A DNA stretch of 15,308 bases. It comes from a virus (Duplodnaviria > Heunggongvirae > Uroviricota > Caudoviricetes). Under the pieces are notes generated by a model. It was not told where the DNA came from and searched no databases. It saw only the letters and a program-made list of their open reading frames with translations. Shown in pieces: positions 77 through 6,571 of this stretch (the first letter of the stretch is position 1; every line of letters begins with the position of its first letter). Where the stretch lies: positions 1 through 15,308 of the IMG/VR virus record IMGVR_UViG_3300048588_000114. One strand, 5' to 3'. The translations under genes were made by a program, and so were the position numbers.

Positions 77-128
77 AACCAACGTTATTAAGTTTCTCCC
101 ACTTTTACTAATAAATAACCAAATATCT

Positions 129-638
129 ATGTTTCACACCTTACTAAGAGCTAAACTCCACAACGTTGTGGTTACTGACGCCCAGCTTCACTATGTTGGA
201 AGCGTTACAATTGACGAAAATCTAATGAAAGCAGTAGGTTTACTGCCTAATGAGAAAGTCTTAATAGTGAATAATAAGAGAGGTAGTAGGATTGAGACAT
301 ATGTGATAAAAGGCAAGCCGGGTTCTGGTGTGATATGCCTAAATGGAGCAGCTGCTCATCACTTTGCTCCGGGTGAAGAAGCCATCATAATGGCCTTTGG
401 ACACTATGATCAATATGAGGCAAAGTTCCACAGACCTAAAGTCATCTTTCCTTCAGACAAGAACACTAAATGGAAAACTCCAAAAGAGGTAGTATATGAG
501 ATGCTGAAGATGGATGCGCTGGAACAAAGTGAAGGATTCGATTTAGAGTACATCGACAAGTTAGCCTTACAAATGGCTTTCACTCCAGAAGAAATTATAG
601 GCTTCATAGCTGATTTAAAGTATAACGTCAAACAATAA
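129..638 (+). CDS. panD: Aspartate 1-decarboxylase (pyruvoyl-dependent, PanD family) with ~55-aa C-terminal extension
   Basis: PanD residues occur at the same numbers as in E. coli: K9 and H11 (RAKLH), G24-S25 autocleavage site (HYVGSVTID), R54/T57/Y58 (SRIETYVI), N72-G-A-A (CLNGAAA) and I86. The core ends near HRPKVIF..KN (~aa 113), followed by extra helical sequence. Confidence 0.93.
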
Positions 639-643
639 ACCTT

Positions 644-1843
644 ATGAAAAATGTTGAGTTTAGCCCTAGCTTAGGAGCGGGCAAGAGCAAGGAATTTGAA
701 AATCTCTATTTTCTCCTCTCCAAAGAGATAGTGGCTAATGGTTCCCGGACTGGTTCAAGAAATGGAGACACTGTAGAATATCTAAACTTTAAGACAGTTG
801 TTGAAAATCCACGTGCCCGTTGTGTTGGAGGCTATGGCCGTGATATCAATATCTTCTTTCTTTTAGCAGAAGCCATGTGGATATGGACTGGAAGAAAGGA
901 TTTGGAGTTCTTAAACATCTTCAATTCTAATATGGCGCAGTTTTCAGATGATGGAATGACCTTTCATGCGCCATACGGCTATAGAATGAGGTTTCAAGGC
1001 GAGCACTCCAGCAGTAATGCGCCATATAATCAAAGATTTGATCAATTACATAAGGCATTAAATCTCCTCAAGGCTAATAGCGAAGACAGGCGGGTAGTGA
1101 TAAGTATTTGGAACCCTGAGTTAGATTTAGGTACTCAGTCCAAAGACTTGCCTTGCAACGATATGCTGATGTTTAAGATTAGAAACGGTAGGCTTCATCA
1201 AACAATTCAAAATCGTAGTAATGATCTTCACTGGGGTTTGCCTACAAATGTGTTCCAATTCTCTTTTATCGGAGAAGTGATGTCTAAGATTTTAGGTGTA
1301 GGATTGGGTGATCAGGTGCACAACTCCCAGTCATTACACTGTTATTTATCTAATCCATTGACAAATGCTGTAGCTGAGGCGGTTACGTCTGGCGAAAGGT
1401 CAACCCTGTATGATGATTCTTCATATTCAGAAATGGATTTCCGTTTCGATACTGACTTAGTCAACGCCCGGCTAATGACTGTGGACGAGATATTCAATAA
1501 AATCATTGATAGGCTTCTTATGTACCATAGAGTACATGATTCTACTACATTACAGAATATGATGGGTGATGAAGCATCATTTACTGATAGTATTAGTAAG
1601 CAGTCTGAGTATTTTGCTTTCGTATATGATATGCTACACACCTATATTCTCTATACAAAGACTGAGCGTACTAATGATGATCGTCTTTCTGCGATAGAGA
1701 ATTTACTAACTCTAAAAAGAACTCGTCATTGTTTTGATTACATGACCTTAGGTCTCAACTTCTTTATAAAGCGTTTAAAAGATCGAACCCTACCGGAGGG
1801 CTTATTATCTCTAAATTCAAAAGATTTATTAGGTAAGCTATAA
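644..1843 (+). CDS. Thymidylate synthase-superfamily enzyme, probably a phage dUMP hydroxymethylase-like protein rather than canonical ThyA
   Basis: TS-fold motifs: GSRNG (R21-like), LAEAMWI (E76 = E. coli E58), EDRRVV, catalytic KDLPC171N, R191-S-N-D194, WGLPTN202 (= N177) and SLH232CY. The C-to-R spacing is 20 aa, as in E. coli TS. PCN, RSND and SLH replace canonical PCH, RS[AC]D and GDxH. Confidence 0.85.
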   Translation: MKNVEFSPSLGAGKSKEFENLYFLLSKEIVANGSRTGSRNGDTVEYLNFKTVVENPRARCVGGYGRDINIFFLLAEAMWIWTGRKDLEFLNIFNSNMAQFSDDGMTFHAPYGYRMRFQGEHSSSNAPYNQRFDQLHKALNLLKANSEDRRVVISIWNPELDLGTQSKDLPCNDMLMFKIRNGRLHQTIQNRSNDLHWGLPTNVFQFSFIGEVMSKILGVGLGDQVHNSQSLHCYLSNPLTNAVAEAVTSGERSTLYDDSSYSEMDFRFDTDLVNARLMTVDEIFNKIIDRLLMYHRVHDSTTLQNMMGDEASFTDSISKQSEYFAFVYDMLHTYILYTKTERTNDDRLSAIENLLTLKRTRHCFDYMTLGLNFFIKRLKDRTLPEGLLSLNSKDLLGKL

Positions 1844-1848
1844 GCCCG

Positions 1849-4800
1849 ATGGAAGAGAACTTATCTAAATGGGTGAAATCAAATAACCTCCGGGTTATAG
1901 AGATTTCACCTATTTTATTTGAAATAGAGGAAGTTGGTCGTTTTCTTTTGCTGGAGGAGAAAGAAGGGAAGATCATTGATAAAGACATGAATATTCTCTT
2001 CTACCAGGAAGAACTAAATCTCATTGAGGAACAAGATGTTAAATTCATCCTGTTTGAGTTCGGCGGTAGGTTCTACTACACAGACTACGATGCTGATAAA
2101 TTTGAATCCAATGAATTTACACTAAAAGCGAAATTTAATGACTTCAAGTATTTAGGCAAGAAAAGAAAAGACCTTGACTTAGAGTTTGTTCATTTAGGCG
2201 TTCATTCAGAATATGAACTATTAAACGGGACTAGATTAGCTGAGGATTGGGTGAAGAAAGCAAAATTTCTAGGCCACAAGAGCCTCGCTATAATTGATAG
2301 GAATACTTTAGGGGGAACCCTAGCCTTTCAGCTTGCTTGTGATAAGGCTAAAATCAAACCGATTATTGGGGAGACCATAACTGTAGCTTATGAACAAAGC
2401 GGTGAAAACGTCATAACTAATGAATTAGTTGTTTATGCTAAGAATGAACAGGGGTGGAAAAACCTCCTACTAATTAATAAGCAAATCAATATTGACAACA
2501 ATGGATATATATGGGAAAAAGACCTGAAAAGCTGCTCCTCAGGCATTATCTGTGTACTATCCAAGGAAAGCGTTGTCAATAAAGTTAGTGACCTTAAAAC
2601 AGCCAAAGAATACGTTTTGAAGTACAAGAAATGGTTTGATGGTCTTTACTATCAACTTGATTCTGTTGACTACTTCGATGATTATAAATACAAGGAATAC
2701 GCTTCTTCTGTATATGAATATCTACACAATCTCTATGATTTAGTGCCTCCAATATTGATTGGTGATAGTTATTATATGGATGAAGAAGAGGCAATAGCCC
2801 GTATATATCTAAACGAGACTAAGAGAGTTCGCCAAGCACTCTCCCATCGCCAGCATTACAAGTCTGTATTAGAACATTTTCAATCATTTTATAGTAATTA
2901 CGATATAGATGATGAGAAAAGATATGCTTCAGGTCTAAATTTCTTAGAAGTGCTCCAAGCAGCAATTTCCAATACCTTAGAGCTTGACAAGGAAATCACG
3001 TTTAAAATTGATGTAGGCCGGAATAAGCTACCAAAATTTGAATATGATGGTGATATTGAGGAATTGTTTTTCTCCCTTCTACAGAAAGGACTAAAGAAAA
3101 AAGTTAAGAAGCGTGGGAAAGATGTAGAAACATACCTAAAGAGGCTGGAGGAAGAAGCCGATGTAATAGTGAACGCTAAGTTTGTTGACTATTTCTTGAT
3201 TCTTTGGGATATGATTAAACAAGCTAAGGACAATGGTATTGGCGTAGGCGTAGGAAGGGGTAGTGTTGGAGGCTCACTAATTGCTTATTTATTAGATATA
3301 ACAGACATTGATCCAATTGAGCATGATTTACTCTTTGAGAGGTTCCTAAATAAGACCCGTGCTATGCCTGAGAAGCACTATACCGTCAATGAAACTTTGA
3401 TTGGTAGAGTGACTAAATATAGAGAGGGACAAACTTGTAAGTTGGAAGGGAAAGATATTTTGATTGATGATCTATATAAAATGGATTATAAGAAGTTCGG
3501 ATTAGAGATTAGCATAGAATTAGTCACCCGTCCAGATCAAAACCCTGATATTGATGTAGACTTTTCAACAGCAGGAAAGGATAGTATCAAGCAATTTCTT
3601 AGAGATAGGTATGGAGAAAGGTACGTTTGTTCAGTGGGAACCTATAATACAGCCCGTATCAAAGGGGCAATTAAAGATTTCGCCAGAGCCGATGGACTTC
3701 CGTTCACTTTTGTTAATACGGTAAATAAGTTCATTAGTAAACCTACGCCGGGGGAAGATGATAAGTGGGAGACAATATTTTCTGACGCTATGTCGGCTCC
3801 TATCTTAAAGAAGTTTATAATGGATAACCCTACACTGATCAATGCTGTAAAGAGCATCCTAAATCAGGCTAAGGTTCCATCAATTCATGCGTCTGCGGTG
3901 ATTATCGTTCCTAAGAAAGACCATTTAGGAAATGATATGGATATATTTGACTGGATGCCGGTGCGTAAAGTAGTGGAGGATGGACATGTGACGCTCATAT
4001 CTGAGTGGGAAGGCAAATATTTAGATAAAGCAGGATTCTTAAAAGAAGATATTTTAGGACTATCGCAGCTTGATAAGTTTAGCTTTATACAGAAACTGAT
4101 TAAGCGTCTAAGAGGAGAAGATATTGTGTTAGCAGATATACCGCTTGACGATCAAGAAGCATTTGAAGTGTTCCAAGGAGGCTACACTGAGGATGTGTTT
4201 CAGATGGGGTCTTATGGCCTTAAAAGGTTTTGTAGGATGGTTAAGCCAGACGGCTTTGAGGATATAGTGGCTATAAATGCTCTTTGGCGTCCGGGGCCAA
4301 TGCGTTCTAATGCGCATTTTGATTATGCTGATATTAAACATGGTAAGAAGAAGCCTCAATATGACTATATGCTCAAGTCAGTGACTGATAACACATATGG
4401 TCTCTACGTCTATCAGGAGCAGATCATGAAGGCTACACACGTTCTGGGGAAACTAACCTTGGCCGAATCTGATGAGGTGCGTACCGTGATGAAGAAGTTC
4501 GATAAGGCGAAGATGGCGACCTTTAAGGATAAATTCATCAAAGGGGCTATTGAGAATGGCTGTCCGGAGAAGAAAGCCTCTGTGATATGGGATAAGTTAG
4601 AGAGATTTTCTGGATATGGCTTTAATAAGTCCCATTCAGCAGCATACGGGCTTATGACTTATTGGTGCGCTTGGTTTAAAACACATTACCCGGAAGAATT
4701 CTATACTTCATCTCTAAATTTCAGTCAAGATGAGATTGAAGTCATTCAAATCTTAGATGAAATAGAGTCAAGAAAACTTAGGCTCAAGGTCTATCCACCA

Positions 4801-5553
4801 GACATCAATCGTTCAAACGAATCTTTCTATACGGATGTAGTAAACTCACTAATTTATTGGAGTTTGACGAAAATAAAAGGGCTGGGGGATAAGTCAGTGG
4901 CTAAGATTATGGAGGTACGAAAGAGCGGTGAGTTCCTTTCTGTCTATGATTTTATTGAGAGAATGAAAGGGACGGGCATAGGAGTAGGGGCAGCGAGAAA
5001 TCTCATAATCGCAGGTTGCTTTGATGAAGTTGAGAACTTAGATGAGCCTAAAGATCGCAGAGACCTACTAAAATCCACCTATAAGACTAACAAAGAACTC
5101 ATTGGCTTTGAGGAAAAATACCCAATAGAAATCACAAGGAAAAATTACGTTTGGACTTATGAGCAAAAGGCTCTTACAGGATTCGGGAAAGTTGACTACA
5201 AGGGACTGCTAAGGGCCACTAATCCGAAGCTACCAGACTTATATCTAAACCCGGACGAATTCTTAATTACAGAAGCAAAGAACAAGAAATCAGTTCTAGC
5301 TGGTAGGATAGTTAGTTGGACTGAAAGATCAAGTAAGCGGGGGAAGTTCGGAATCCTACAAATGGAGTGTAACAACAAGATGATGCGTTGTGTTATGTGG
5401 TCTGACGTCTGGGATGAAGCTAAAGATCACATTGAAAAGGCTAAAAAAACTGGTGGATTGGTCGCTATTATAGGCAAAATAGGGTATGATGATTATGCTC
5501 AATGTAATGCCCTCTACTCAGATAGTGAAATAACAAGGATAATTGATTTATGA
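1849..5553 (+). CDS. dnaE: DNA polymerase III alpha subunit (family C, DnaE-type), phage-encoded
   Basis: PHP domain (FVHLGVHSEY, LAIIDRN, IIGET, GDSYY), then YFLILWD, GVGRGSVGGSLIAYLLDITDIDPIEHDLLFERFLN, catalytic PDIDVDF (D569/D571), HASAVII, KEDILGL (D734), NALWRPGPM, YVYQEQIM, GYGFNKSHSAAY, HhH LTKIKGLG, and a C-terminal OB-fold (VLAGRIVSWTERSSKRGKFGILQME). Confidence 0.97.
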   Translation: MEENLSKWVKSNNLRVIEISPILFEIEEVGRFLLLEEKEGKIIDKDMNILFYQEELNLIEEQDVKFILFEFGGRFYYTDYDADKFESNEFTLKAKFNDFKYLGKKRKDLDLEFVHLGVHSEYELLNGTRLAEDWVKKAKFLGHKSLAIIDRNTLGGTLAFQLACDKAKIKPIIGETITVAYEQSGENVITNELVVYAKNEQGWKNLLLINKQINIDNNGYIWEKDLKSCSSGIICVLSKESVVNKVSDLKTAKEYVLKYKKWFDGLYYQLDSVDYFDDYKYKEYASSVYEYLHNLYDLVPPILIGDSYYMDEEEAIARIYLNETKRVRQALSHRQHYKSVLEHFQSFYSNYDIDDEKRYASGLNFLEVLQAAISNTLELDKEITFKIDVGRNKLPKFEYDGDIEELFFSLLQKGLKKKVKKRGKDVETYLKRLEEEADVIVNAKFVDYFLILWDMIKQAKDNGIGVGVGRGSVGGSLIAYLLDITDIDPIEHDLLFERFLNKTRAMPEKHYTVNETLIGRVTKYREGQTCKLEGKDILIDDLYKMDYKKFGLEISIELVTRPDQNPDIDVDFSTAGKDSIKQFLRDRYGERYVCSVGTYNTARIKGAIKDFARADGLPFTFVNTVNKFISKPTPGEDDKWETIFSDAMSAPILKKFIMDNPTLINAVKSILNQAKVPSIHASAVIIVPKKDHLGNDMDIFDWMPVRKVVEDGHVTLISEWEGKYLDKAGFLKEDILGLSQLDKFSFIQKLIKRLRGEDIVLADIPLDDQEAFEVFQGGYTEDVFQMGSYGLKRFCRMVKPDGFEDIVAINALWRPGPMRSNAHFDYADIKHGKKKPQYDYMLKSVTDNTYGLYVYQEQIMKATHVLGKLTLAESDEVRTVMKKFDKAKMATFKDKFIKGAIENGCPEKKASVIWDKLERFSGYGFNKSHSAAYGLMTYWCAWFKTHYPEEFYTSSLNFSQDEIEVIQILDEIESRKLRLKVYPPDINRSNESFYTDVVNSLIYWSLTKIKGLGDKSVAKIMEVRKSGEFLSVYDFIERMKGTGIGVGAARNLIIAGCFDEVENLDEPKDRRDLLKSTYKTNKELIGFEEKYPIEITRKNYVWTYEQKALTGFGKVDYKGLLRATNPKLPDLYLNPDEFLITEAKNKKSVLAGRIVSWTERSSKRGKFGILQMECNNKMMRCVMWSDVWDEAKDHIEKAKKTGGLVAIIGKIGYDDYAQCNALYSDSEITRIIDL

Positions 5554-6212
5554 CCTATAAAAGAACTAATAAAACTAAGAAAAAGATCGAGACACTATTC
5601 AGTTTCATTGATTCTAACAACTTTTATGACCTTGCTGATTCCGATAGATGGCAAGGATTTAGGCTGCTCAAGAAAGACAATACTGCTGAGCATACACATT
5701 ATGTGACTTTGTTTGTGTTATTTATATGCCGGGCACTTGGTTTATCAGCAGAAGACACAATAAAAGTTCTTCAATATGCTATTCTACACGATTTTGATGA
5801 GACTTATAGCGGGGATGTTAGACACCCATTCAAATACAATCCATTTAATGGGCCTCAAGTTAGAGCGGCAATAGACGCCTACACAAATCACCGTCTAACC
5901 AGCCTCAAGTCTGGATTGTTCAATGATGTGCTAAAAGAAATTCCTAAACTGCATGATAATCCTAAGTTTCACAAGATCGTAAAATTAGGGGATTGGATGA
6001 GTATGTACTATTGGCTAGATAGGGAGCGTAAATGTGGCAATAAATTTGTCGTTCCGCACTTGAAATACTGCGTTTCCTCTATTGTTTCTTTAGGGTTGGA
6101 CTTTGAGTCACTCTTCGGTATAGACAATCAAATCAGCAAAGATATCAAACAACAACAAATACAAAATAGACTATGGCAACTTCAACAACAACCAAGCGCA
6201 CCCCGAAACTAA
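5550..6212 (+). CDS. HD-domain deoxynucleotide phosphohydrolase (YfbR/DatZ-like)
   Basis: Pattern RW...NTAEH...AILHDFDETYSGDVRHPFK...IVKLGD matches the YfbR/DatZ signature (RW, AEH, HD-x-x-E, GD-x-x-x-P-x-K, K-x-x-D). ATGA overlap with the dnaE stop. Confidence 0.82.
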   Translation: MTYKRTNKTKKKIETLFSFIDSNNFYDLADSDRWQGFRLLKKDNTAEHTHYVTLFVLFICRALGLSAEDTIKVLQYAILHDFDETYSGDVRHPFKYNPFNGPQVRAAIDAYTNHRLTSLKSGLFNDVLKEIPKLHDNPKFHKIVKLGDWMSMYYWLDRERKCGNKFVVPHLKYCVSSIVSLGLDFESLFGIDNQISKDIKQQQIQNRLWQLQQQPSAPRN

Positions 6213-6571
6213 GCCCGGAGGCAGCAAGACAGAAATCTTTCAATGAAGCAGTGGCTCTCATTAGAAAAAAAGAGCCTGAGATGGCTCAGGCAATCGAAGA
6301 AATGGTTATCCATGTAGGCGGAACCTACGGGGATAAGTATGCTAATTCCCCCATTGAGACAAAAGGGCTAATTTATTGGGCAGATGATAAGGCTAAAGGC
6401 TATAACATAGGGCAGGCTGCTAGATATATTCAGCGCTACCTAACAGATGGTTTCAAAAAGTCTGATAATCCTACAGACATAAAGAAATGTCTTCACTATA
6501 TTCTCTTTGAGCTAACCCGTCTAATTAAACTGGACAAGGTTAAAGTTAAATCTAAAGATATTATAGAGTAA
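6173..6571 (+). CDS. DUF3310-family protein (T7 gp1.7/SaV-like, putative nucleotide kinase)
   Basis: GTYGDKY...IETKGLI...GYNIGQAARYIQRY...KKSDNPTDIKKCLHYIL resembles the family pattern Y..HY...I...F..GN..KY..R...K....DL.KA..Y. Overlaps the HD gene by 40 nt. Confidence 0.62.
   Translation: MATSTTTKRTPKLSPEAARQKSFNEAVALIRKKEPEMAQAIEEMVIHVGGTYGDKYANSPIETKGLIYWADDKAKGYNIGQAARYIQRYLTDGFKKSDNPTDIKKCLHYILFELTRLIKLDKVKVKSKDIIE

Follow-up and report, generated by a model that had tools for sequence, protein, structure and literature searches.

The window, meaning the whole 15,308-nt stretch of phage DNA that was analysed, appears, with moderate confidence, to hold the nucleotide-level front end of a 5-hmdU hypermodification pathway together with a module of the aspartate decarboxylase PanD and an amidoligase, the likeliest product being 5-(β-alanylamino)methyl-dU. 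The phage combines the known enzyme set for rebuilding thymine with PanD and an amide ligase, so its DNA probably contains an undescribed β-alanine-bearing base, whose final identity is put forward as a hypothesis. Thymidine hypermodifications shield phage DNA from nucleases, restriction enzymes among them, and are also a source of DNA-labelling enzymes. To our knowledge, every donor yet characterised (Gly, Ser, Glu, putrescine, and 1,3-diaminopropane) is drawn from host pools, the known tailoring steps are performed by enzymes that use PLP, radical SAM chemistry, flavin, or acetyl-CoA, and neither PanD nor an ATP-dependent amide ligase has been linked by experiment to thymine hypermodification.

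The source genome (G000) is that of a 110-kb phage with a host range of Bacteroidota-type bacteria, and its circular assembly has an exact 112-bp terminal overlap, so that the start of the window is an arbitrary cut. A megablast search of the window against phage records returned no match. Six-frame searches for TS, ThyX, HMUDK_hel, ADDT, DAO, PRA-PH, DUF3310, and GNAT covered the whole genome, and a Pfam sweep covered the ORFs outside 75–95 kb, save for four crossing locus boundaries. The features of the window are as follows:

1–76, + strand: 3′ end of the Amidoligase_2 gene, with its stop codon at 74–76; these last 76 nt are repeated through the 112-bp overlap
79–91, + strand: putative promoter-like motif CCAACGTTATTAA, 37 nt ahead of the PanD start codon
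129–638, + strand: PanD, pyruvoyl-dependent L-aspartate 1-decarboxylase, 169 aa (Pfam PF02261 Asp_decarbox, 2.7e-44, 150 bits)
644–1843, + strand: dUMP hydroxymethylase-type TS homologue, 399 aa (Pfam Thymidylat_synt, 1.7e-23; phrog_5131, 2e-73)
1849–5553, + strand: DnaE-type replicative polymerase, 1234 aa (Pfam PHP, DNA_pol3_alpha, finger, and HHH_6)
5550–6212, + strand: YfbR-like HD 5′-deoxynucleotidase, 220 aa (PF12917, 1.6e-12, 47.9 bits, cut-off 25.9)
6173–6571, + strand: small conserved ORF, 132 aa (phrog_480, unknown function, 2.2e-5; no Pfam match)

The tight, co-oriented block of five genes described in the original prediction is real, with ORF calls spaced by 5-nt gaps, one 4-nt overlap, and one 40-nt overlap. 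Pfam and PHROGs match PanD, the TS homologue, DnaE, and the HD nucleotidase, but not the fifth ORF, and therefore four of the five proposed identities are confirmed. The fifth, a gp1.7-like DUF3310 kinase, is not borne out: PF11753 has no match genome-wide even at an E-value of 10, hmmscan of the small ORF is empty at 0.01, and its profile aligns with T7 gp1.7 at an hhalign probability of 0.6%. A weak profile match (5e-5 in a 58-sequence search) links it to a weakly DUF3310-like protein of phage L032, and the ORF may at most be distantly DUF3310-like.

The reading of the TS-like gene as a dUMP hydroxymethylase is upheld by its placement in a clade with the known enzymes (tree support 96/96). 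The protein is 41.6% identical to SPO1 gp29, 41.9% to the PaMx11 enzyme, 38.5% to that of M6, and 25.6% to E. coli ThyA, with profile scores of 237–287 bits to the three phage proteins and 76 bits to ThyA, and it keeps Cys171, R191, S192, D194, N202 (the uracil-type Asn), H232, and Y234. The six-frame searches detected no second TS homologue, canonical ThyA or otherwise, and no ThyX in the genome, leaving the window copy as the sole TS homologue. A MazG-like protein is encoded at 51.9 kb of G000. By homology and from established pathways, the TS homologue would convert dUMP into 5-hmdUMP and the phage DnaE would put 5-hmdU into DNA, while the HD nucleotidase, a candidate editor of the dTMP/dUMP pool, would drain canonical dT/dU nucleotides, probably along with the MazG-like protein. 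In L032, an unrelated phage with PolA, the hydroxymethylase gene is likewise followed by a YfbR-like one. The five genes at 129–6571 had been thought to form one unit. Among the 80 best viral relatives, however, 79 carry TS–DnaE(–HD) without PanD, and PanD clusters elsewhere use PolA or PolB; TS–DnaE–HD, seen in all but two of the 80 loci, is a shared chassis and lies outside the novelty.

The original prediction had left the 5-hmdU DNA kinase (5-HMUDK) and the amino-acid:DNA transferase (AADT) to be sought beyond the window, and both are present at 60–66 kb of G000, together with a flavin lyase of the PaMx11 gp47 type. Two of the proteins encoded there were located by Pfam:

G000 62921–63901: AADT (aGPT-Pplase2; PF18724 (ADDT), a marginal score of 28.7 bits against a cut-off of 26.2)
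G000 65197–66180: 5-HMUDK helical-domain protein, HMUDK_hel (PF18723, 183 bits)

Three P-loop kinase paralogues each match the N-terminal (kinase) half of phrog_800, and the 5-HMUDK thus appears to be split into these paralogues and the separate helical-domain protein. The conserved E-x-E...C-K motif of the AADT aligns with PDB 25qc. The DAO-type flavoenzyme matches PDB 8z2o/8z79, annotated as ‘flavin-dependent lyase’, over its full length at 6e-19, and retains W51, Y180, Q182, K202, R242, Y244, and K268, which form the base and carboxylate pocket (PMC11472151). PaMx11 arrives at 5-acetylaminomethyl-dU through gp46 (AADT/PUGT), gp47 (flavin lyase/NGTO), gp48 (acetyltransferase), and gp49 (5-HMUDK) (PMC8989533, PMC11472151). 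By analogy, the split 5-HMUDK would phosphorylate 5-hmdU within DNA, the AADT would then attach an amino acid to the base, and the lyase would trim the adduct to 5-aminomethyl-dU. No GNAT acetyltransferase was found, as PF00583 has no match in the genome at an E-value of 0.1 and no family of acetyltransferases appears in the Pfam sweeps.

PanD consists of a core (residues 1–113) and a tail of ~55 aa, the latter being present in most members of the phage sublineage and missing in the divergent member L025. PDB PanDs match the protein down to 6e-28. Related loci were recovered with an alignment query, a single PanD sequence retrieving none. In the alignments, K9, H11, Y22, G24–S25, R54, T57, Y58, N72, and I86 are invariant in phage and bacterial PanDs, the Gly24–Ser25 self-cleavage site being kept, and all catalytic and Asp-binding residues are intact in every PanD linked to hypermodification clusters. 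PanD would convert free L-aspartate into β-alanine, a scarce metabolite that the phage would thereby source for itself and, with 66,258 T positions in its genome, would require stoichiometrically. It had also been suggested that PanD decarboxylates Asp already attached to DNA, in the manner of the PLP decarboxylases of M6 and ViI; M6 gp52 and ViI gp226 do decarboxylate DNA-bound amino acids (PMC8989533), and the Pfam sweep (the genome outside 75–95 kb and the four boundary ORFs) found no PLP enzyme. However, the active site of PanD is a small inter-subunit pocket, and K9, R54, T57, and Y58, which hold free L-Asp, are the same as in bacterial PanDs. Pyruvoyl PanD chemistry requires a free primary α-amine, which an N-α-linked Asp does not have, making decarboxylation on DNA highly improbable.

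The most informative partner of PanD, absent from the original prediction, is the amidoligase, which is its true upstream neighbour across the circular junction (complete gene at G000 109368–110174, 268 aa; Pfam PF12224, 1.1e-8; phrog_2443 ‘amidoligase enzyme’). The family profile identified no solved relative by sequence, and these came from the fold search alone, in which the AlphaFold model (pLDDT 94.9) matched Glu–Cys ligases, YbdK, Dop/PafA, and glutamine synthetases, with a Foldseek probability of 1.00 for GshA, GshF, YbdK, and plant GCL. The model places the protein in the GS/GCL-type carboxylate–amine ligase superfamily, and E8, E10, E55, N57, H94, R186, E201, and R203, which include the acidic and Arg residues that bind metal and ATP in this superfamily, are invariant in the family alignment. 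Four distinct intergenic copies of the pattern CNAMMGTTATWWA occur within the 110 kb; they precede PanD, the amidoligase (by 22 nt), a ResIII helicase (by 21 nt), and an ORF at 85840. The 372-aa protein encoded upstream of the amidoligase was rejected as a further pathway enzyme: it is acidic and of low complexity, rich in Lys, Pro, and Ala, has a single small conserved core, and lacks a counterpart in L031 and L032. The amidoligase would use ATP to couple β-alanine to a DNA-borne group, 5-aminomethyl-dU, and would thus stand where PaMx11 has its acetyltransferase. Characterised members of the superfamily activate the γ-carboxylate of glutamate, not β-alanine, and a β-alanine-specific subfamily is not definable because the PanD-linked ligases are scattered in the amidoligase tree rather than clustering together.

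PanD and the amidoligase also lie within AADT/kinase clusters of two unrelated phage lineages. In L032 (73 kb), the amidoligase, lyase, and PanD are three overlapping genes, downstream of which lie an AADT, three kinases, HMUDK_hel, the hydroxymethylase, and the YfbR-like HD gene. The cluster of L031 (140 kb, PolB) comprises HMUDK_hel, dUTPase_2, NT5C, PanD, GATase, AADT, a kinase, an amidoligase, and a hydroxymethylase; with a GATase but no lyase detected, it shows that no single scheme fits all PanD clusters. The AADT might instead install the β-alanine made by PanD directly on 5-phosphomethyl-dU to give 5-[(2-carboxyethyl)aminomethyl]-dU, the tethered carboxylate then being amidated or extended by the amidoligase, with ammonia from the GATase in L031-type clusters and a different amine in G000. 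AADT/Pplase2 enzymes do take Gly, Ser, putrescine, and 1,3-diaminopropane (PMC8989533, PMC13458397), PanD, GATase, and AADT are consecutive in L031, and the carboxylate activated by GS/GCL-type ligases, as identified by the fold search, resembles that of a tethered amino acid. Yet G000 and L032 have gp47-type lyases whose carboxylate-binding Arg keeps its GxRPY setting and which would strip the β-alanine off such an adduct again, and in L032 it is the amidoligase and lyase rather than the AADT that share an operon with PanD; direct installation is therefore judged rather unlikely.

Ligation to 5-aminomethyl-dU, the preferred reading, also draws on the distribution of PanD. All 27 near-complete relatives have HMUDK_hel (27/27), whereas none of them (0/27 in each case) yielded a match to PanD, to the amidoligase, or to a lyase or AADT of the G000 type, the last two being sought by single-sequence queries that divergent homologues could escape; G009, a relative with PanD, retains the AADT, lyase, and kinases. 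Within the phage group, PanD and the amidoligase come and go with the AADT and lyase. PanD adjoins thymidine-hypermodification genes in three unrelated lineages; most of the TS–DnaE(–HD) relatives have no PanD. Gene neighbourhood in these lineages and the presence/absence pattern make the proposed link between PanD and thymidine hypermodification well supported. The earlier reading stands in its core pathway and in this link, and is not upheld in the five-gene unit, the kinase label, and the Asp-adduct decarboxylation. As a separate observation, the phage group swaps tailoring cassettes (glycosyltransferase, radical SAM, or amino-acid type) on one conserved 5-hmdU chassis; how host defence drives diversification could be studied cleanly in this natural system.

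Some PanD genes nevertheless stand apart from hypermodification genes: a complete 360-kb phage and several fragments encode PanD but no HMUDK. In L076, a further unrelated phage in which the pairing with amidoligases recurs, PanD is followed by three amidoligases and adjoins LuxE, LuxC, and an aminotransferase, a setting that resembles small-molecule synthesis, and the pair may have been reused there in a 7-deazaguanine-type cluster. In G000, ~45 kb separates PanD and the amidoligase from the DNA-acting enzymes of the AADT/lyase cassette. PanD and the amidoligase could accordingly make a free small molecule (a β-alanyl or γ-glutamyl compound, or a pantothenate/CoA precursor), and their place near the hydroxymethylase gene would then reflect chance insertion into an early operon. 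Against this, PanD lies within AADT/HMUDK clusters in L031 and L032, its gain and loss in the phage group track the AADT and lyase, the amidoligase subfamily usually adjoins an AADT among loci with enough flanking DNA, and the Pfam sweep, which covered the genome outside 75–95 kb and the four boundary ORFs, turned up no panB, panC, or CoA genes. A free product is accordingly considered quite improbable. PanD marks a subset of amidoligase clusters, namely those of this sublineage, L031, and L032. Because PanD is missing from most amidoligase/AADT clusters, β-alanine may not be the general ligase substrate, and PanD may be a mere supply add-on to such clusters.

The broader proposal, that in at least three unrelated lineages PanD makes β-alanine as a stoichiometric DNA building block which a minimal GS/GCL-fold ligase attaches post-replicatively to 5-aminomethyl-uracil, is tentative and on balance doubtful. 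If the preferred reading holds, it would add a phage-encoded donor-supply enzyme to hypermodification and an ATP-dependent amide ligase working on DNA, and would give a function to the amidoligases left unexplained by Lee et al.; under the broader proposal, 5-(β-alanylamino)methyl-dU would be a new natural base, and its synthesis the first reaction to form an amide bond on a nucleobase of polymeric DNA at the expense of ATP.

Compared with the bacterial PanDs of E. coli (1PPY/1AW8) and M. tuberculosis (2C45), the phage enzyme belongs to the same fold family, shares the self-cleavage and active sites, and is 42–56% identical over its core, but differs in its C-terminal tail, its amidoligase partner, and the lack of panB/panC nearby. 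Among the papers of the searched library, none joins PanD to 5-hmdU chemistry, in agreement with the original prediction, which knew of no such case; PanD is new in 5-hmdU hypermodification, whereas amidoligases in such clusters had already been noted by Lee et al., who described uncharacterised metaviromic 5-HMUDK/AADT clusters with amidoligase and glutaminotransferase matches (PMC8989533). The same amidoligase–AADT pairing is seen here at most loci with enough flank, the further partner being a GATase or a lyase, and the aspartate decarboxylase, which that paper does not mention, is found here. Like G000, PaMx11 has a dUMP hydroxymethylase (42% identity), a 5-HMUDK, and an AADT, and its gp47 lyase agrees with that of G000 in the pocket residues, which makes 5-NmdU the likely intermediate. 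The AADT–lyase–acetyltransferase–kinase gene order of PaMx11 (PMC8989533) is paralleled by the AADT–amidoligase–lyase–kinase order of several amidoligase-subfamily loci. PaMx11 has an acetyltransferase, whereas G000 has none and instead encodes an ATP-dependent GS/GCL-fold amidoligase and PanD; the G000 kinase is also split, 45 kb separates the two loci that house the pathway genes of G000, and its polymerase is DnaE. The α-dapT modification of Acinetobacter phage SH-Ab 15599 likewise relies on a scarce aspartate-derived C3 amine, 1,3-diaminopropane, which comes from host genes whose levels rise upon infection and is installed directly by the transferase (PMC13458397); in G000, by contrast, the enzyme that forms the donor is encoded by the phage, as is an additional ligase.

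The window covers the opening 15.3 kb of a complete virus record of 110,210 bp (G000), the ends of which overlap by exactly 112 bp, indicating a circular assembly with an arbitrary start. As the original prediction stated, five open reading frames lie at 129–6571, all on the plus strand, separated by two 5-nt gaps, one 4-nt overlap, and one 40-nt overlap, and the identities proposed for the first four are borne out by both Pfam and PHROGs:
129–638, plus strand, PanD
644–1843, plus strand, thymidylate-synthase (TS) homologue
1849–5553, plus strand, DnaE
5550–6212, plus strand, YfbR-like HD protein
6173–6571, plus strand, 132-residue ORF without a Pfam match

The fifth had been read as a DUF3310/gp1.7-like kinase, a label left unsupported because the PF11753 (DUF3310) profile finds no match in the whole genome even at an E-value of 10, a profile built from this ORF plus its relatives shows no match to T7 gp1.7 (0.6% in hhalign), and its sole link to DUF3310 is a weak profile match to a protein of another phage, itself weakly flagged as DUF3310. 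In some relatives, the DnaE call is broken into two or three fragments separated by additional ORFs (L016:11694-15937 and L017:4614-9160), and the hydroxymethylase of another phage (L031:14835-16907) bears an HNH-containing intein; these replication genes appear to be targets of mobile elements. A protein with a Tad2-like (anti-Thoeris) domain (9.5e-23) is encoded within 15–35 kb of the genome.

The five genes are present, and the prediction missed their neighbor across the circular junction, an Amidoligase_2 protein (G000 109368–110174, ending at window position 76; PF12224, 1.1e-8; phrog_2443). Contiguous contigs of related phages carry the unbroken order amidoligase–PanD–hydroxymethylase–DnaE–HD, so the adjacency is not a junction artefact. 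The predicted amidoligase structure is confident (pLDDT 94.9), and its structural relatives are glutamate–cysteine ligases, YbdK, Dop/PafA, and glutamine synthetases, all of the ATP-dependent carboxylate–amine ligase superfamily. Ten homologues share, without exception, the acidic, His, and Arg residues characteristic of such ligases. G000 contains the motif CNAMMGTTATWWA at no more than four distinct sites, every one intergenic (window 79–91; G000 85806–85818, 101888–101900, and 109333–109345), which precede PanD, the amidoligase, a ResIII helicase, and one structural-region ORF, so that the amidoligase and the PanD operon have one copy each. Directly upstream of the amidoligase, a 372-residue protein (G000 108156–109274) has poly-Glu and Lys/Pro/Ala-rich tracts around a small conserved core, GDLFFNALKGKEEV. 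This sublineage conserves the protein and the phages L031 and L032 lack it; it may be a DNA mimic or nucleoid-type protein.

Solved PanDs align end to end with the phage protein (2c45, 6e-28; 1ppy, 2e-22), which keeps Lys9, His11, Tyr22, the Gly24–Ser25 self-cleavage site, Arg54, Thr57, Tyr58, Asn72, and Ile86. These residues are invariant in an alignment of 18 phage homologues and bacterial enzymes, and likewise in PanDs from three other phage lineages. Judged by its sequence, PanD is most likely functional as an L-aspartate 1-decarboxylase that uses free aspartate; the rival explanation that it decarboxylates DNA-bound aspartate is unlikely. Most members of this sublineage have a tail of some 55 residues bearing the motif ALQMG.T..E, which a divergent member (L025) lacks. 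PanD is rare among deposited phage genomes, occurring only in Gordonia phage Jace and Achromobacter phage 2-1 once records resembling host contamination are left out. In one relative (L050:10801-12549; WBZN01000151.1), PanD and the dUMP hydroxymethylase share a single open frame of 583 codons (P0121), which may be a natural fusion or may stem from a sequencing error; its nearest relative, L049, has them in separate frames.

The TS homologue retains the catalytic Cys171, the R-S-x-D motif, the uracil-type Asn202, His232, and Tyr234. Its identity is 41.6% to SPO1 gp29, 41.9% to the PaMx11 enzyme, 38.5% to that of M6, 31.7% to that of ViI, and 25.6% to E. coli ThyA, and T4 gp42 gives no BLAST match. 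A small tree groups it with SPO1, M6, PaMx11, and ViI (96/96 support), leaving ThyA and gp42 outside, and its length (399 residues) resembles that of the SPO1, M6, and PaMx11 hydroxymethylases (381–409) rather than ThyA (264). The predicted assignment as a dUMP hydroxymethylase is well supported by homology. A second, canonical ThyA or ThyX was not found: G000 holds just one TS homologue and no ThyX.

The other enzymes of known pathways, 5-hmdU DNA kinase (5-HMUDK) and amino-acid:DNA transferase (AADT), were both found elsewhere in the genome, at 59.9–66.2 kb, together with a flavoenzyme, by a Pfam sweep that took in nearly all ORFs:
59987–60610, P-loop kinase paralogue matching the kinase half of phrog_800, the full-length 5-HMUDK family
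61560–62549, flavoenzyme (8z2o/8z79 match)
62921–63901, AADT (PF18724, 28.7 bits; cut-off 26.2)
63898–64572, second such kinase paralogue
64569–65192, third such kinase paralogue
65197–66180, separate 5-HMUDK helical-domain protein, HMUDK_hel (PF18723, 183 bits)

5-HMUDK is split into three kinases and a stand-alone helical-domain protein, a layout shared by the unrelated phage L032. Over its whole length, the flavoenzyme aligns at 6e-19 with two solved chains named "flavin-dependent lyase", 8z2o and 8z79. Read against the PaMx11 gp47 structure, it keeps Trp51, Tyr180, Gln182, Lys202, Arg242, Tyr244, and Lys268, and the Arg242 position is proposed to hold the glycine carboxylate (PMC11472151). 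A MazG-like PRA-PH protein (G000 51851–52528) is a candidate dTTP/dUTP pyrophosphatase.

HMUDK_hel occurs in all 27 near-complete relatives (~100 kb), whereas PanD, the amidoligase, the G000-type lyase, and the G000-type AADT occur in none of them (0/27 each), and amidoligase–PanD is found at 1 of the best 80 viral loci with the hydroxymethylase–DnaE block. The AADT, lyase, and kinases of G000 recur in G009, a relative with PanD. PanD and the amidoligase might instead make a free metabolite; their joint presence and absence with the AADT and lyase indicates that the four travel as a set despite lying at two loci 45 kb apart. The original prediction had counted absence of panD from relatives with TS–DnaE–HD against itself, and panD is indeed absent there; the idea survives, since these relatives also lack the AADT and lyase. 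Other cassettes adjoin HMUDK_hel in PanD-less relatives. In two close relatives, L177 (G013 39000-57000) and L178 (G026 29500-47500), it lies beside the terminase gene, accompanied in one by a TET-associated glycosyltransferase and a dUTPase and in the other by radical SAM/SPASM, GT1 glycosyltransferase, cytidylyltransferase, and kinase genes. Tailoring cassettes can be exchanged on a common 5-hmdU chassis. TS–DnaE–HD is the chassis conserved in a large group of phages that all appear to make 5-hmdU DNA, and it lies outside the novelty.

PanD and amidoligase genes also meet in unrelated phages. L032 (73 kb, high G+C, PolA) has overlapping amidoligase, lyase, and PanD genes, followed by AADT, three kinases, HMUDK_hel, hydroxymethylase, and a YfbR-like HD protein; L031 (140 kb, PolB) has HMUDK_hel, dUTPase_2, NT5C, PanD, GATase, AADT, kinase, amidoligase, and the intein-bearing hydroxymethylase. 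As the module accompanies PolA and PolB too, polymerase type is irrelevant to it. Across about 40 viral and metagenomic loci, this amidoligase subfamily usually adjoins an AADT where the recovered flanks suffice, partnered by a GATase or lyase. In L076:10001-20351, part of a phage-like contig of 88 kb that carries a WhiB gene, three Amidoligase_2 genes come after PanD, and then methyltransferase, 5'-3' exonuclease, LuxE, LuxC, class III aminotransferase, PTPS/QueD, and radical SAM genes; the pair there looks to be in a 7-deazaguanine or polyamine context, and LuxE/LuxC with the aminotransferase could convert beta-alanine to 1,3-diaminopropane.

From directly observed gene content, conserved residues, neighborhoods, and co-variation, we infer the chemistry as follows. 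By analogy with PaMx11, the AADT and lyase would yield 5-aminomethyl-dU, PanD would supply beta-alanine, and an ATP-dependent amide ligase in the acetyltransferase's place would form 5-(beta-alanylamino)methyl-dU. G000 has no GNAT acetyltransferase, and an amide ligase occupies that slot in related clusters. Three things make it probable that PanD feeds a thymidine hypermodification: its neighborhoods in unrelated phages, the AADT association of the amidoligase subfamily, and the phyletic pattern within this phage group. This specific product, the simplest option, is put forward only tentatively; a less likely alternative is that beta-alanine is itself the donor used by the AADT. With 66,258 T positions in G000, each progeny genome could use tens of thousands of donor molecules. 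To our knowledge, bacterial beta-alanine is otherwise required only for CoA. A phage-made supply fits such a demand, and donor supply matters in the dapT phage (Acinetobacter phage SH-Ab 15599), as infection raises host diaminopropane genes (PMC13458397). Against this scheme, PanD is missing from most amidoligase clusters, no lyase was detected in L031, which carries a GATase, and known ligase-superfamily members activate glutamate.

By its gene content, G000 encodes a genuine system for thymidine hypermodification that belongs to the known 5-hmdU/5-HMUDK/AADT type, in which PanD and the amidoligase are a putative, uncharacterised tailoring branch recurring in several phage lineages. Within the literature library searched, no paper combines "5-hmdU" with "aspartate decarboxylase". 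Lee et al. left unexplained the amidoligase and glutaminotransferase matches in metaviromic 5-HMUDK/AADT clusters and did not mention aspartate decarboxylase (PMC8989533). The order AADT–amidoligase–lyase–kinase, seen at several amidoligase loci, parallels the AADT–lyase–acetyltransferase–kinase order of PaMx11 (PMC8989533).
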